In this document: in pieces, positions 7,408 to 63,438 of the stretch
Numbering within the stretch: the first letter of the stretch is position 1
Layout of the letters: each line of letters opens with the position of its first letter
From: Candidatus Heimdallarchaeum aukensis
Lineage (GTDB): Archaea; Asgardarchaeota; Heimdallarchaeia; Heimdallarchaeales; Heimdallarchaeaceae
Direction: 5' to 3'
Assembly (NCBI GenBank): GCA_021513695.1
Contig: CP084166.1
Location: 1,696,001 to 1,760,000 of the forward strand
DNA length: 64,000 nt
Made by a program: the position numbers and the translations under genes
The notes under the pieces: generated by a model
The model's input: the letters and a program-made list of their open reading frames with translations, nothing else
Told to the model about the DNA's origin: nothing
Database searches by the model: none

Positions 7408-8073
7408 TTATGAAGAAACTTTTTGTGATTCTAAAAGATATAATCTTTTCTTTAATGAATGATACTTTTTAGCAAATTCTAGGCTAGAGACTTCATAATC
7501 CTCAAACTGTTGTTCAAGTGCAAATAATTCATTCTCAACTTTTAATATTTCATCCTCAAGTAGTTTTGATTTCTCTTGAGCAATAACATTTTCAGAAACA
7601 CTGCTTCTCTCTTTTCGCTCGATCTCTGCTAATTCCCTCTTTTTCTGTTCTAATATTCGAACTAATTGAGATTTTTGATTATTTAACATCGCAATTTCTG
7701 ATGTTGGATCTTCCCATGTAGTTTCAGCATATGAAACCATTTTTGCTCTTACTCTTTGAAACAGACGCTTTACTTCTGCAATTACTTGAAAAATATGATA
7801 AGTTGGCCTCCACCGAGCTAACATTCTCATAGAAAGGATTCCATCTTCGACATTTGGATGTTCCATGGGAGTATTGACATAGATAGTTGGAGGAACATTT
7901 GGAAAATCATTAGGAATAACAATTTCTATTTCAGCATTTTTGGTGCCATTATAGGTTTGAACTGGAACAAAACCTTTCCATATTCTTAAATTGCCATCTT
8001 TAGGTTCAAAACCATAAGCTCTTTCATAAATAAATTGGGCCTCTCGACTTAGAATTTCATCGGAAATGGTCAT
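7408..8073 (-). CDS. UEV (ubiquitin E2 variant, catalytically inactive UBC fold) + C-terminal coiled coil; TSG101/Vps23-like (ESCRT-I) candidate
   Basis: UBC-fold motif HPNVEDGILSMRMLARWRPTYHIFQV retains HPN and Trp, but the catalytic Cys position is Ser. Followed by ~90 aa coiled coil (stalk/steadiness-box-like). Confidence 0.5.
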   Translation of the reverse strand: MTISDEILSREAQFIYERAYGFEPKDGNLRIWKGFVPVQTYNGTKNAEIEIVIPNDFPNVPPTIYVNTPMEHPNVEDGILSMRMLARWRPTYHIFQVIAEVKRLFQRVRAKMVSYAETTWEDPTSEIAMLNNQKSQLVRILEQKKRELAEIERKERSSVSENVIAQEKSKLLEDEILKVENELFALEQQFEDYEVSSLEFAKKYHSLKKRLYLLESQKVSS

Positions 8074-15946: not shown

Positions 15947-16465
15947 CTATACCTTTCCTATTCCACTTTTCTCCCATTTCTGAAATTGTTCAAGTAAGTT
16001 TTCTATTTCCCCGGATACACCTTTTTTGTCTACGAAAACAGTTTTTCCTTTAATTCGTATATTGTCTGTTGGTAAATCTAGCAAAAACTTCTGCAATGCT
16101 AGTTCATCAGTAAATCCTAACAGTTCAGCCATTGTCTCTATTTCTATTTCTTCATATTTCATTAATATTTGTTCAAATTTTGCTTTTCTTTCTTCCTCTG
16201 TTAATTCCTTAATTATTTTTTCTCCTTTCTTCTTTATTTTGACAAATCTGTCTTCTTTTAGCTCGCCCTCTATTTTTCTTTTTTCTATTAGTGATTGAAT
16301 TATAGCTCTTACTTCATCTTCTTCTATACCTGTGATTTCAGTTATTTTATTTACTTCTCTAACCATTTCAAGTTGAGTTAAAATTGTTTGTTCTTTTATT
16401 TGTCTCTGTATTTTTGGAATTTTCTTTTTTATATAATATCTTGAAAATGGACCTATGATTTTCAT
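15947..16465 (-). CDS. Tandem winged-helix protein (hypothetical; ESCRT-II Vps25-like architecture possible)
   Basis: 172 aa. Two predicted wH units (ITEITGIEEDEVRAIIQSLIEKRKIEGEL... and IETMAELLGFTDELALQKFLLDLPTDNIRIKGKTVFV). Confidence 0.35.
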   Translation of the reverse strand: MKIIGPFSRYYIKKKIPKIQRQIKEQTILTQLEMVREVNKITEITGIEEDEVRAIIQSLIEKRKIEGELKEDRFVKIKKKGEKIIKELTEEERKAKFEQILMKYEEIEIETMAELLGFTDELALQKFLLDLPTDNIRIKGKTVFVDKKGVSGEIENLLEQFQKWEKSGIGKV

Positions 16466-16599
16466 TTTATTCTTTTAATACTTGGTTGCTTTGACTATTT
16501 AATTTTTCTTAGAATTTTCTAATATTATTATAACAACAAGAGTAATGTTAAAAAGCTCCTTTCCTTTTTTTTATATGACTACATTATATGTAGTCGTTC

Positions 16600-16664
16600 G
16601 TGGCGATGACTTAACCGTCCCAGTCTGACTATTCAAATGATGACCCTACGACACAATGAGCCAC
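16600..16664 (+). ncRNA. Candidate C/D box sRNA (2'-O-methylation guide)
   Basis: GC-richer island in an AT-rich intergenic region. Terminal stem GUGGC(16600-16604)/GCCAC(16660-16664). C-like box GCGAUGA (16603-16609). D' CUGA (16625-16628). 8-nt spacer. Perfect C' AUGAUGA (16637-16643). Exactly 12 nt to the D-position AUGA (16656-16659). Confidence 0.4.
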
Positions 16665-16789
16665 ATTAATTAGTTCTTTTCGCTTTTTGCAGCAGTTTAC
16701 ATTTCTTTTTTCGTAATTGTAACTTGTTAATTGAACATTCTCTTTTAAAAAAGCAATATTTAATTAATTATTCAGTATTTTTTTCTTTA

Positions 16790-18370
16790 ATGAGTAACTC
16801 TTCTACTTTTCAAATTGTTATCCCTCAATCAGGACATCATGAACCAATTACTGTAATTAAGGAAATAAATAGATTAATTTTCACTGGAGATGCCTCAGGT
16901 AAAATTTGTATTTGGAATACATCTTTTGATTCTGAATTAGGTTTTATTAAAGCTCATTCCTCTTCTATTACTGATATTGAATGGTTCCCTTTTTCACCTT
17001 CTATTATCACATCATCACAGGGTTTAGATATTCGCTTATGGTCATGGGATAACTTTTCATTACTGCAATCGCAACAAGTTCATGGGTCCGTTGTTATTAA
17101 CATTGACTTTCTTGGTGACTATATTATCACAGGAGGACGTGACAGATTACTAAAGAAATGGTCTTTTTCTGAGGGAAAATTTCATCTTGTAAAACAGGTT
17201 AAAATTCCTTATTTAGAAGAGTTTTTTGTTTTTGACGATAAAATTCTTATTTCTTGTTCTGACGGATCAATTTCTATTTACGATTCAGATTTTAACCCCT
17301 TATCTTATTTAACCTTGAAAAGAAATAAACTTGTATCTGCAATTAGGAAATCAGGAAAATACCTTTCTACATACAAGAAAGACCCTTATACTGTTATTGG
17401 ACATTTGGAGGGTGTTCGAGGTCTTTCTGTTACTTGTTTCACTTTTGATGAAAAATTTCTTTATTTAGGACACTTCTATGGCATCATTACAGTATGGAAA
17501 AAGAAGGATTTCAAGCTTTCACATATTTTTGTTTCTCACGACAAAAATATTACGTCTATTCATATATTTAAAGGAAAAGTTGTAACAATTGCTCTTGATT
17601 CTAAGGTTGCAGTTTTTGATATAGCCAAAGAAAAACATCATTCCTATGAATTGCCTTATCGTCCTCTATGTTTAATTCAATTAAAAAATGAAAATTTTGT
17701 TATTGGGTTTGATAATGGTTTAATTGGAGTTTATGATAGTAATTTTAATGAAATCAAAAAAAGAGTTCCTGTTCAAAATATTAATTGTTGTTCAATTTCT
17801 CCTGAATTTATTTTAATAGGTACTAATAATGGGTATGTTAAACGATACACTATTCCAAATCTTGAAGAAATAGCACACTTCCATATTAATTCATCAATTC
17901 TAGGAATTTTCTACTATGATAGTATGATAGCTATTATTGATAGTGATAGTAATCTTAGAATATATGAAGCAAATTTAGCTTTTTCAGAGATTAAGCAATT
18001 ATTAATTCCTTTGAGAAAAGAAGAACTAACACTACAAGGATATAATAGATACATTGTTTTGTCTCCCAATTTGATCTTTGATTTTGAAAAGATGGAAATT
18101 ATGAAGGGAGAAGTCTCCTCTTCAACGAAAAAGAAATATTCAGAGTCAATAGTATACTCTTTTTCTTTTGAAACAGGAAATATTATTCTTAACATTGATG
18201 AAAATAAATTAAACATGTTTCTTGAAAAAGGAGACTACTCTGTCTATCCTGAAGGCATTTTGAGAAGTTTGAAAAAACTGATTCACAATGTTTCCTCACC
18301 TTTAAGACAGATTGGTGAATCTACTTGGATTAACATTGACATTCTTGAACAAGCAAGAAAACTCAGATGA
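16790..18370 (+). CDS. WD40 repeat beta-propeller protein (probably two propellers)
   Basis: Repeated GDASGKICIWN / DIRLWSW / GGRDRLLKKWS / GHFYGIITVWK type WD blades across ~525 aa. The ORF-track TTG start at 16724 is upstream of the first ATG at 16790. Confidence 0.75.
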   Translation: MSNSSTFQIVIPQSGHHEPITVIKEINRLIFTGDASGKICIWNTSFDSELGFIKAHSSSITDIEWFPFSPSIITSSQGLDIRLWSWDNFSLLQSQQVHGSVVINIDFLGDYIITGGRDRLLKKWSFSEGKFHLVKQVKIPYLEEFFVFDDKILISCSDGSISIYDSDFNPLSYLTLKRNKLVSAIRKSGKYLSTYKKDPYTVIGHLEGVRGLSVTCFTFDEKFLYLGHFYGIITVWKKKDFKLSHIFVSHDKNITSIHIFKGKVVTIALDSKVAVFDIAKEKHHSYELPYRPLCLIQLKNENFVIGFDNGLIGVYDSNFNEIKKRVPVQNINCCSISPEFILIGTNNGYVKRYTIPNLEEIAHFHINSSILGIFYYDSMIAIIDSDSNLRIYEANLAFSEIKQLLIPLRKEELTLQGYNRYIVLSPNLIFDFEKMEIMKGEVSSSTKKKYSESIVYSFSFETGNIILNIDENKLNMFLEKGDYSVYPEGILRSLKKLIHNVSSPLRQIGESTWINIDILEQARKLR

Positions 18371-36061: not shown

Positions 36062-36625
36062 TTAAGCATATAGTTTCTCATAGAAAAGTACAATGTTTTT
36101 TAGCAGAGTTTTAAATGCTTCGTCCACGTTTTCACCAGTCTTTGCTGAAGTTTCAATATATGGAACTGCAAAACCTGACCAAGCTGATAACGATCTTGCA
36201 TATTCTTCTGCTTGTTCCCGTAAAATGGGGTCTTTTGCTGTGTCCCTTAAATCAGATTTATTTCCAATTAAAACAATTGGAACAACACGATTATGATTAT
36301 TTTTTAATAGTTCTGCAATCCACGCAGGTATGTTCTCAAAAGATGACCTACGAGATATATCAAAAACAAGCAGGCAACCAGATGTTCCACGATAATATAC
36401 CTCCCGTACTGCTGAAAATCTTTGTTGCCCAGCTAAATCCCATATTTGTGCTACAAAATCCTGTTGATCTATTTTCAATCTTTTTACCGCAAAATCTGCA
36501 CCTATTGTCATACTATATCCTTCTTTAAACCCCTCACCTAGGTATGTTTTTCTGAGTGATGTTTTTCCTACAGCACCGTCACCGAGTAATGTTACTTTGA
36601 AAATTTTTCGCTGTGATGAACTCAT
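36062..36625 (-). CDS. Ras/Rab-like small GTPase
   Basis: G1 GDGAVGKTS, switch II WDLAGQQRF (DxxGQ), G4 GNKSDL, G5 ETSAKTG. 187 aa. No CaaX. Confidence 0.8.
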   Translation of the reverse strand: MSSSQRKIFKVTLLGDGAVGKTSLRKTYLGEGFKEGYSMTIGADFAVKRLKIDQQDFVAQIWDLAGQQRFSAVREVYYRGTSGCLLVFDISRRSSFENIPAWIAELLKNNHNRVVPIVLIGNKSDLRDTAKDPILREQAEEYARSLSAWSGFAVPYIETSAKTGENVDEAFKTLLKNIVLFYEKLYA

Positions 36626-39138: not shown

Positions 39139-39666
39139 TTAGAATTCTTCTAGTTCTTTTAGTGCGAGTTCAAGATCAGATAAATACTCTTCTTGAACAG
39201 ATTCAACTTTTGGAGTTGGTTCAGCAGTTGAAACTTGTGTTGGTGTACTAACGGGTTGTTTTGCTTCTATGGGTTTTGTTTCAACATCCAATATTGCTCT
39301 GATATTTTCAGACTGTATTTTCATAGTTCGTCTAACCAAACCTAGTTGAATGCCTGCATCTGTTATAAGACAGAGTACAGAGCTACCACAACTAGCAACT
39401 AAAATAAATCCATCTTCAAATTCTGAGATAATAATATCCAAATTTTCTAGACCAACATTTGTTCCTTGTTGTTCAGAAGCTAAATATACTGCACTTGCTA
39501 TTGCTCCTAGAGCTTCTGTTTCAAACTCATCGAAAGCAAATCTTGAAGAATATGCCAGTGTCAACCCTGTTTTATCAGCTAAAATAACATGGTTTATTAA
39601 AGGATCACTTGTAATAATTTCATGGAGAATACTGTTTATCTTATCTACACCGATAATTCTTATCAC
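39139..39666 (-). CDS. Roadblock/LC7 (MglB-like) domain protein with Pro/Thr linker and acidic C-terminal helix
   Basis: LINHVILADKTGLTLAYSS...ALGAIASAVY...FEDGFILVASCGSSVLCLITDAG Roadblock fold signature. C-terminus PVSTPTQVSTAEPTPKVESVQEEYLSDLELALKELEEF. Confidence 0.7.
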   Translation of the reverse strand: MIRIIGVDKINSILHEIITSDPLINHVILADKTGLTLAYSSRFAFDEFETEALGAIASAVYLASEQQGTNVGLENLDIIISEFEDGFILVASCGSSVLCLITDAGIQLGLVRRTMKIQSENIRAILDVETKPIEAKQPVSTPTQVSTAEPTPKVESVQEEYLSDLELALKELEEF

Positions 39667-45266: not shown

Positions 45267-45824
45267 ATGGGAAAGGATATTGAAGTCAAATTTAGAGACT
45301 ATGAAGTGTACAAACTGAGTATCTGCGGACCAGGTCAAGCAGGAAAGACAAGTTTATGTAAAAGACTTGTACATAACAAATTTACCAAATCCTATAAAGA
45401 AACAGTGGGGGCAGAATTTTTTAGCTATAAATTTAACACAAAGAAAGGAAAAAATGTTGGCTTATTTTACGATTTTGCGGGACAACAACGATTTGTAAGT
45501 GTACGTAATGTTCTTTATCCTGGCACAGATGCTGCAGCAGTTGTATTTGATGTTACAAAAAGGGATTCTTTTCGTTCTGTTGCCCAATACATTAGAGAGT
45601 TAAGGACGAAACTTAAAGATGTTGAAATAACAATTGTTGGAAACAAAATTGATTCTAAAAAAAGAGAGATTTCATTTGAAGATGCAAAGAGAATAGCAGA
45701 AAAACTAGGTTGTAAGTACGTTGAAACCTCTGCTGCAACTGGTGAAGGATTAGGAGAATTTTTCAAAACATTAATACATTCTGCAATTTCATATAAAAAG
45801 AAAAAAATAAGTGTTGTAGAATGA
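45267..45824 (+). CDS. Ras/Rab-like small GTPase (second copy)
   Basis: G1 GPGQAGKTS, switch II YDFAGQQRF, G4 GNKID, G5 ETSAATG. 185 aa. Confidence 0.8.
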   Translation: MGKDIEVKFRDYEVYKLSICGPGQAGKTSLCKRLVHNKFTKSYKETVGAEFFSYKFNTKKGKNVGLFYDFAGQQRFVSVRNVLYPGTDAAAVVFDVTKRDSFRSVAQYIRELRTKLKDVEITIVGNKIDSKKREISFEDAKRIAEKLGCKYVETSAATGEGLGEFFKTLIHSAISYKKKKISVVE

Positions 45825-62967: not shown

Positions 62968-63438
62968 ATGAGCTTGGATGAAGAAGAATTTTTTGCAAGA
63001 TTAGCTATTGAAGCAAATGAATTAAAACGTGAGCTTCCTACTTTTAAACCAGTTGATGGAGATATGACTCATTTACGTGGATTTATTTTTGGAACAGGAC
63101 TTTATGAAGGAGGAGTATTTGTTTTAGACATAATCATCCCTAGAGAATACCCATTTAAACCACCAAAAGTAGAATGTTTAACAAAAATTTTTCATCCTAA
63201 CTTCTTTAATAGAAGAATTTGTGTAGGGGTTTTAGGCGCAGATTGGACACCAGCAAATAACCTTGTTGATGTAATTGAGAGCATACGATTTTTGCTTGGT
63301 GAACCAAATCCTGACGATCCTTTAAATTCCACGGCAGCCAACTTAATGAAAAGAGATCTTAAAGCATTTGAACAAAAAGCCAGAGAATACGTGGAAAAAT
63401 ACGCATCATTTAGTCAAATACAAGAATATGGTTTATAA
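62968..63438 (+). CDS. Ubiquitin-conjugating enzyme E2 (catalytically competent UBC domain)
   Basis: FHPNFFNRRICVGVLGADWTPANNLVDVIESIRFLLGEPNPDDPLN: HPN, active-site Cys, Trp and PNPDDPL all present. 156 aa. Confidence 0.85.
   Translation: MSLDEEEFFARLAIEANELKRELPTFKPVDGDMTHLRGFIFGTGLYEGGVFVLDIIIPREYPFKPPKVECLTKIFHPNFFNRRICVGVLGADWTPANNLVDVIESIRFLLGEPNPDDPLNSTAANLMKRDLKAFEQKAREYVEKYASFSQIQEYGL

Follow-up and report, generated by a model that had tools for sequence, protein, structure and literature searches.

The 65-nucleotide (nt) element at 16600–16664 on the forward strand of the DNA analyzed here, a 64,000-nt stretch of the genome of Candidatus (Ca.) Heimdallarchaeum aukensis (contig CP084166.1, positions 1,696,001 to 1,760,000; hereafter "the window"), is, judging from its sequence and that of its relatives, very likely a functional archaeal C/D guide RNA for 2′-O-methylation of a guanosine in the P-loop of 23S ribosomal RNA (rRNA). 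An initial annotation had proposed that the element is an archaeal C/D box methylation guide, and the present analysis supports that proposal: the guide next to box D′ pairs with the 23S P-loop and recurs in published small RNAs (sRNAs) and in 28 archaeal genomes. The element is a further example of a well-known kind of RNA and an expected housekeeping RNA. Its boxes, its guide pairing, its relatives, and the pattern scans point to a dual-guide C/D box sRNA gene that takes up all 65 nt.

Anatomy of the element

Read 5′ to 3′, the element consists of GTGGC GATGA CTTAACCGTCCCAGT CTGA CTATTCAA ATGATGA CCCTACGACACA ATGA GCCAC. The arms of a 5-bp terminal stem, GUGGC (16600–16604) and GCCAC (16660–16664), enclose the rest. 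This stem is seen in the sequence, in the centroid fold, and in the alignment of the window with related sequences (L001, L002, L003, L005, L029, and L050), in which the 5′ arm is invariant in all six. Box C, GCGAUGA (16603–16609), has C for U at position 2 of the consensus RUGAUGA, keeps its GA core intact, and is invariant in the relatives. Downstream of box C lies the 15-nt spacer that carries the D′ guide (CUUAACCGUCCCAGU, DNA CTTAACCGTCCCAGT; 16610–16624); the 11 to 12 nt at its 3′ end (16613–16624) pair with the 23S segment GCUGGGGCGGU. The internal boxes D′ (CUGA, 16625–16628) and C′ (AUGAUGA, 16637–16643) are both perfect matches to the consensus and are joined by an 8-nt linker, the putative k-loop (CUAUUCAA, 16629–16636), which is 3 nt shorter in Ca. 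H. endolithica. The D guide (CCCUACGACACA, DNA CCCTACGACACA; 16644–16655) fills exactly the 12 nt between C′ and box D. The latter reads AUGA (16656–16659) instead of the consensus CUGA, retains the UGA core, and is AUGA in six of the six aligned relatives. The C′–D distance of 12 nt, the C–D′ distance of 15 nt, and the total length of 65 nt fit an archaeal C/D sRNA. All coordinates, motifs, and spacings that had been assigned to the element in the initial annotation (stem, GCGATGA, CTGA, 8-nt linker, ATGATGA, 12 nt, ATGA) were recovered.

A relaxed four-box pattern, GATGA-N10-17-CTGA-N2-10-TGATGA-N10-14-[ACT]TGA, which was defined after the element had been seen, has a single match in the window when both strands are considered, and 300 first-order Markov simulations of the window yielded none. 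With another C/D scanner of looser criteria, the same site was the only one returned. The element is also distinct in composition: its GC content is 49.2%, compared with 22.4% and 20.8% in the intergenic flanks and 31.8% in the window as a whole, in agreement with the earlier description of a GC-richer island in an AT-rich gap. The fold energy is no better than that of shuffled sequences (z = 0.16), and the centroid structure keeps the terminal stem only. Weak folding is expected of C/D sRNAs.

Short boxes, two of the four being imperfect, an unexceptional fold energy, and Rfam scores below threshold (see below) are what one would see if the element were a chance cluster of short motifs without function. 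That explanation can be regarded as effectively refuted: the architecture was obtained in 0 of 300 simulations, the element forms a GC island, its substitutions among relatives are selective (see below), and the guide in its box context is common to published sRNAs and 28 archaeal genomes.

Pairing of the D′ guide with the 23S rRNA P-loop

The D′ guide, AACCGUCCCAGU, adjoins box CUGA and is complementary to the P-loop of 23S rRNA (helix 80), 5′-GCUGGGGCGGU-3′. Pairing was computed against the 23S sequences of E. coli and seven archaea, not the host's own rRNA. The 12 nt 5′ of D′ form 10 Watson–Crick pairs and one G·U pair with E. coli 23S 2247–2258, with 11 contiguous pairs over 2247–2257. Eleven contiguous pairs are likewise formed with the euryarchaeal-type GCUGGGGCGGU (M. 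maripaludis); a GGC reading in the rRNA reduces the number to 10. Because the 23S sequence at this site reads GGCUGGGGCGG in seven of the seven archaea in the alignment of Dennis et al. 2015 (PMC4644070), the archaeal duplex would comprise 10 to 11 contiguous pairs. C16620, the fifth nucleotide 5′ of D′, lies opposite the P-loop G that is equivalent to E. coli G2251. The D′ guide, in other words, forms at least nine contiguous pairs and presents a plausible target to its fifth nucleotide, on a 23S sequence that is universally conserved. When guide–rRNA complementarity was checked, as the initial annotation had suggested, the D′ guide passed, its N+5 position falling on G2251 (E. coli and seven archaeal 23S sequences).

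The modification at this site, Gm2251, belongs to the small number of rRNA modifications conserved universally; its yeast equivalent, Gm2619, is guided by snR67 (PMC11121408). For archaea, sRNA-guided methylation of the P-loop G (G2520 in the numbering of that study) has been predicted in three of seven archaea (PMC4644070).

One position of the guide deserves separate mention. The U at 16618 stands opposite the fourth G of the P-loop, and the same U is present in the 28 genomes and in the published sRNAs PCAsR36, TtesR107, and IHOsR410. An archaeal 23S rRNA with A at the fourth P-loop position, suggested by the invariant guide U, was considered and rejected, since the alignment has G in all seven archaea; the invariant U therefore implies a G·U wobble and not an A. 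The constant wobble either marks shared ancestry or is required for function, be it for duplex stability, for register, or for release.

Recurrence of the P-loop guide in Archaea

Genomes, one per species (GTDB), were scanned for GATGA-N1-8-ACCGYCCCAGTCTGA. The scan returned 38 loci, comprising 28 archaeal loci, one on a probably misbinned contig, and nine bacterial ones. The archaeal hosts are Heimdallarchaeota, Promethearchaeota, Nitrososphaeria/Conexivisphaera, Micrarchaeota, and Altiarchaeales. In 26 of the 29 archaeal or probably archaeal loci, the match is followed downstream by a C′ box, a second guide, and a D box. In the other three (L010, L011, and L036), the P-loop guide occupies the D slot and a second C box lies upstream. 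None of the nine bacterial matches has C/D architecture; by our rough estimate, about 15 chance matches were to be expected. The degenerate guide position is T in every archaeal match, though C was permitted, and C in five of the nine bacterial chance matches. Based on these results, the P-loop guide is widespread in Archaea and carries a constant wobble.

The closest published counterparts come from the table of Dennis et al. (PMC4644070), in which CCGTCCCAG is present in exactly three sRNAs, PCAsR36 (...AGCCGTCCCAGTCTGA), TtesR107, and IHOsR410; the figures tabulated for them are, in our reading, RNA-seq read counts. The nearest described relatives of the present element are these three, Pca sR36, Tte sR107, and Iho sR410 (PMC4644070): as here, the guide core CCGUCCCAG(U) stands by a D-type box, the layout is that of a dual guide, the predicted target is G2520 (E. 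coli G2251), and the wobble U is in place. The partner of the P-loop guide in T. tenax and P. calidifontis is directed at U2544 in helix 81, which is also the site proposed below for the D guide of the present element. The order of the guides is reversed, however: in Pca sR36 and Tte sR107, it is the helix-81 guide that adjoins D′ and the P-loop guide that adjoins D. The published sRNAs have 12-nt spacers and GUGAUGA C boxes, whereas the present element has a 15-nt D′ spacer, the boxes GCGAUGA and AUGA, and a 5-bp terminal stem. The hosts differ as well: those of the published sRNAs are hyperthermophilic crenarchaea, and the present one is a mesophilic Asgard archaeon with 32% GC.

Some of the loci found in the scan differ from the element in layout. 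L010 (Promethearchaeota) and L011 and L036 (Heimdallarchaeota B3), whose P-loop guide takes the D slot, likewise have a 15-nt spacer and carry a different 5′ guide. The 5′ guide of L011 and L036 contains AACUUACC, a sequence complementary to a conserved stretch of 23S helix 71, GGUAAGUU. From these sequences, guides appear to have been shuffled between sRNAs across Asgard lineages. At L025 (3530–3590, Heimdallarchaeota 4571-419), the homologue combines a C box that fully matches the consensus (AUGAUGA) with 12-nt spacers. Two open reading frames (ORFs) run into it, an upstream one of 226 amino acids (aa) with its stop codon and a convergent one of 521 aa with its 3′ end, whereas the copy in the window is intergenic and has a putative promoter. 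Because L025 is not syntenic with the window, it provides no orthology-based covariation. The locus L022 (4266–4330 of MFMA01000023.1, labeled "Candidatus Kaiserbacteria bacterium") holds a complete C/D sRNA, GUGAUGA-UACCGUCCCAGU-CUGA-...-CCGAGGUAGCUU-CUGA, of the same type as those of Micrarchaeota; this contig is probably misbinned archaeal DNA.

Conservation in Heimdallarchaeum

The locus is syntenic in Ca. H. endolithica PR6 (CP084167.1), with 87% identity over an 8-kb region; the two named Heimdallarchaeum species have an average nucleotide identity of 88% (PMC8813620). The sRNA itself is 95% identical to its counterpart in H. endolithica. Relative to the window, the H. endolithica copy lacks 3 nt of the D′–C′ linker and has other bases at D-guide positions 12, 2, and 1; no change affects the boxes, the stem, any part of the D′ guide, or D-guide positions 3–11. 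In a strain-level variant (L002/L003), D-guide position 1 alone is changed. The changed positions are those that a C/D ribonucleoprotein (RNP) tolerates, a pattern that is consistent with selection, the substitutions being too few to amount to proof.

The same locus is present in enrichment metagenomes. In one of the related sequences (L002, 4060–6519; JGI Ga0366833_1003153), which is 97.5% identical, the isoleucyl-tRNA synthetase is split into two ORFs, the first of 403 aa and the second, of 473 aa, extending past the locus boundary; the window has it as a single 1052-aa ORF. The split reflects either a frameshift or an assembly error.

Candidate targets of the D guide

The D guide predicts the target 5′-UGUGU*CGUAGGG-3′ in the window and 5′-ACUGU*CGUAGGC-3′ in H. 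endolithica. Its core, CCUACGACA (positions 11–3), is invariant, and positions 12, 2, and 1 vary among the relatives. In the target table of Dennis et al., one sRNA ("sR7") is listed with both 23S G2520 and U2544, and in the alignment each of the labels T7 and P36 marks both sites (PMC4644070). U2544 ends the loop of helix 81 and directly precedes the closing C of the 3′ strand, as in Pca GAUAU*CGGGGGUG and Mma UGCAU*CAGGAGGG (PMC4644070). The predicted target of the present D guide has a shape like those of Pca and Mma, namely xxGU*C followed by a helix strand. Moreover, the D guides of the thaumarchaeal members (GCUCGC-GAC-GAA), of the Heimdall locus L025 (GCCCGA-GAC-GAU), and of the present element (CCCUAC-GAC-ACA) have GAC in common and differ in the part that would pair with the covarying helix. 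By analogy with these cases, the chances are about balanced that the D guide targets the helix-81 loop U (U2544), roughly 24 nt downstream of the P-loop site. The target segment in helix 81 is predicted, with similarly balanced chances, to be UGUCGUAGG (PR6: CUGUCGUAGGC). As an alternative target, the guide may be directed at 16S rRNA around E. coli 1291–1302, with which it has a GUCGUAG core in common.

How the D guide is read bears on the element as a whole. The element could be a genuine C/D RNA of which only the D′ half is a methylation guide, with the D guide being an orphan or aimed at 16S ~1291–1302 or at a transfer RNA (tRNA), or the RNP could act mainly as an rRNA-folding chaperone. 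We consider this unlikely. It would account for the lack of a significant D-guide match in E. coli rRNA and for the fact that the terminal C/D pair, which serves the D guide, is the degenerate one; it also agrees with the P-loop guide having different partner guides in other lineages. The invariance of D-guide positions 3–11 between species that differ at 13% of sites, with only positions 1, 2, and 12 varying, argues instead for selection on pairing. As for 16S rRNA, the best match of the D guide is the 7-nt GUCGUAG common to E. coli 1291–1302 and M. maripaludis, but this reading needs mismatches at guide positions 11–12, opposite a U that every aligned 16S sequence has. Pairing with helix 81, on the other hand, explains the GAC common to three lineages.

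Other candidate targets of the D guide, namely E. coli 23S 2357–2368, 2589–2600, and 2615–2626 and the region of yeast U2724, were rejected, none being better than chance. ARAGORN found no tRNAs within the window, and a BLAST search with E. coli 16S and 23S rRNA found no rRNA in any of the fetched loci. A metagenome scan for 23S sequences with adjacent targets, TGTCGTAGG-N2-20-ACTGGGACGGT, yielded one more copy of the sRNA (L050) and chance matches; the pattern took A, not G, at the wobble position and also fits the antisense strand of the sRNA gene. Two scans of viral contigs, one for the 23S P-loop together with the target pattern and one for an archaeal 16S motif, yielded only chance matches or nothing, and a full-text literature search for the guide and target strings returned only primers and unrelated sequences.

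With a functional dual guide as the preferred reading, the element would work as follows. The sRNA would be transcribed from its own TATA-type promoter, and its C/D and C′/D′ motifs would, as in other members of the family, bind L7Ae, Nop5, and fibrillarin. The guide 5′ of D′ would pair with the 23S P-loop in helix 80 (5′-GCUGGGGCGGU-3′), which would lead fibrillarin to 2′-O-methylate the G opposite the fifth guide nucleotide (E. coli G2251, yeast G2619). The nucleotide so methylated would be the G that pairs with C75 of the P-site tRNA. The D guide would most likely pair with the 3′ side of helix 81, some 24 nt downstream, and direct methylation of the loop U before the closing C (U2544). With two neighboring segments bound, the RNP might also serve as a local folding aid in 50S assembly.

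Weighing the assignment

Several observations weigh against a functional guide RNA. The imperfect C and D boxes, which had been named as a weakness in the initial annotation, are indeed one: box C (GCGAUGA) departs from the consensus by a C for U, and with box D being AUGA instead of CUGA, the usual C1–G6 pair is lost. The 5-bp terminal stem directly abuts the GA core without an obvious 3-nt bulge for a kink turn (k-turn), and a canonical k-turn with a 3-nt bulge would keep only about two stem pairs. The D′ spacer has 15 nt, compared with an archaeal norm of 12 nt, members of the family having 12 to 17 nt. In the guide–target duplex, G·U wobbles occur at guide positions 7 and 1. Complementarity taken alone is weakly significant, since a match of equal quality somewhere in E. 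coli rRNA was obtained with 17 of 300 shuffled guides. For the D guide, no convincing match was found in E. coli rRNA, the best being equaled in 139 of 300 shuffles. Genes for L7Ae, Nop5, and fibrillarin are absent from the 64-kb window, an observation with no bearing on the rest of the genome. Among surveyed archaeal taxa, more than 85%, and probably over 90%, have a fibrillarin ortholog (PMC8481954).

The covariance-model check proposed in the initial annotation also went against the element. Searches of the whole window against Rfam, by gathering threshold and by E-value, gave nothing relevant. No family reached its gathering score. A local E-value search of 451 nt gave the only signal, a match to SNORD31 (RF00089) of 16.6 bits compared with a threshold of 40 bits, with E = 0.58. 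Membership in SNORD31, which takes at least 40 bits, is thus not indicated. The likeness lies in the common guide, ACCG(C/U)CCCAGU-CUGA, to which the match is due.

As regards the terminal motif, a candidate k-turn, the GA dinucleotides for sheared pairs and the U–U position are present in the C/D pair. Thaumarchaeal members of the P-loop guide family have a G-rich stem and a GAUGA box C, and their box D is CCGA or CUGA. The degenerate terminal boxes, the abutting stem, and the 15-nt spacer look tolerated, not disabling, because they are conserved in the six aligned relatives and partly mirrored in the thaumarchaeal members. The strength of the case comes from the match falling in register on the G2251 equivalent and from the recurrence of the guide in a known, conserved family.

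Genomic setting and transcription signals

The element lies between a divergent PCI-domain gene (15947–16465, reverse strand) and a 526-aa WD40 gene on the forward strand (ATG at 16790). The intergenic gap is 258 nt when measured to the start of the longest ORF (TTG, 16724), which is consistent with the intergenic region of about 260 bp described initially, and 324 nt when measured to the ATG at 16790 chosen by the gene caller.

A TATA-box-like sequence, TTTATATG (16570–16577, forward strand), is centered about 26 nt 5′ of the stem and is conserved in H. endolithica. Its position relative to 16600 fits the usual distance between TATA box and start in archaea, and we infer that the sRNA has its own TATA-type promoter. 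Many of the 29 loci have a TATA-like motif about 25 to 35 nt upstream, and at this distance homologues in other phyla likewise show AT-rich TATA-like or "GGTTAAA" motifs. Between the TATA-like box and the 5′ end of the sRNA is a perfect palindrome with 8-bp arms, GACTACAT-TAT-ATGTAGTC (16577–16595). It is present in a single copy in the window and forms a 10-bp hairpin in the minimum free energy fold; the H. endolithica copy has the same arms and differs by one base in the loop. The palindrome is possibly a repressor operator or, if transcribed, a hairpin in the 5′ leader of a precursor. On the other side, T-rich tracts (TTCTTTT and CTTTTT; 16674–16688, forward strand) begin 10 nt and end 24 nt past the stem. 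Oligo-T terminators are in use in archaea, and the tracts may form such a terminator. A scan for sigma-70 promoters and intrinsic terminators, which is not applicable to archaea, gave nothing useful.

Since the element is on the same strand as the WD40 gene and 125 nt upstream of it, one may ask whether it is a cis element of that mRNA, such as a k-turn/L7Ae motif or a structured leader, within a long 5′ untranslated region (UTR). Some archaeal C/D sRNAs are cut from the ends of mRNAs, the L025 homologue overlaps an ORF stop codon, and the whole intergenic region upstream of the element is unusually conserved (94%), all of which could be taken in that direction. Toward the WD40 gene, however, T-rich tracts follow the element, identity with H. 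endolithica drops to 79% with 13 gapped columns, and a separate TATA-like sequence, TTTAAAAAAG, lies about 40 nt before the WD40 ATG. A role in the UTR also leaves an rRNA guide in register with the D′ box unexplained, and homologues in other phyla are found in unrelated gene contexts. A cis element is therefore highly improbable, and we retain the reading as a separate guide RNA.

The segment between the PCI-domain gene and the sRNA (16466–16599), with its 94% identity, exceeds the regional mean of 87%, coding sequence included, which suggests a dense content of promoter and regulatory sequences.

The window is densely coded, and its genes identify the host as an archaeon, more precisely an Asgard one. 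It encodes archaeal/eukaryotic-type ribosomal proteins (uS15, eL15, eS1, eS6, and eS24), TFB, aIF2-gamma, ABCE1, RNase P proteins, exosome Rrp4, and SBDS, along with Asgard signature proteins. The latter, eukaryotic signature proteins, comprise two ubiquitin-conjugating E2 enzymes, two small GTPases of the Ras family, a protein of the Roadblock/LC7 type, and a small PCI-domain protein, with the WD40 protein in addition. Eukaryotic signature protein genes are located at 7408–8073, 62968–63438, 36062–36625, 45267–45824, 39139–39666, and 15947–16465, the last being the PCI-domain gene that adjoins the sRNA.

Relation to eukaryotic guides and implications

The eukaryotic guides for the same site resemble the element in several respects. 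Yeast snR67 acts on the same target nucleotide (G2619, equivalent to E. coli G2251; PMC11121408) and, like the present element, is a dual guide (Gm2619 and Um2724) with two sites that flank a nearby helix (PMC2806949). Its second site, U2724 in the helix 86 region, is about 105 nt away, compared with about 24 nt here. The human SNORD31 (RF00089) consensus has UACCGCCCCAGU-CUGA right after box C, that is, in the same 5′ (D′) slot as here, with C opposite the fourth P-loop G where the present element has U. Both eukaryotic RNAs are longer than the archaeal one. With an Rfam score of 16.6 bits against 40 bits, homology with SNORD31 or snR67 is not demonstrated. In bacteria, RlmB, the E. coli enzyme that makes Gm2251, yields the same product but is a stand-alone SPOUT enzyme that uses no guide RNA, so that its mechanism of site selection is unrelated.

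It is conceivable, though rather doubtful, that the P-loop guides form a single vertically inherited pan-archaeal family marked by the wobble U, the Asgard form, with this guide in the D′ slot and a second guide to a nearby 23S site, being the direct counterpart of SNORD31 and snR67. If this were true, the family would be among the very few guide RNAs traceable across the transition from archaea to eukaryotes, and lineages would not have converged on an essential site repeatedly.

C/D guide RNAs are poorly annotated outside cultured thermophiles, and a literature search within the library available to us found no paper on C/D sRNAs in Asgard archaea. Heimdallarchaeum, from the clade closest to eukaryotes, very probably has an RNA guide for the one ribose methylation of the peptidyl-transferase P-loop that is conserved in all domains of life. 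The guide slot, being the same as in human SNORD31, may provide an anchor for comparing archaeal sRNAs with eukaryotic small nucleolar RNAs, and annotation of the family in Asgard, thaumarchaeal, and DPANN genomes could start from the element.

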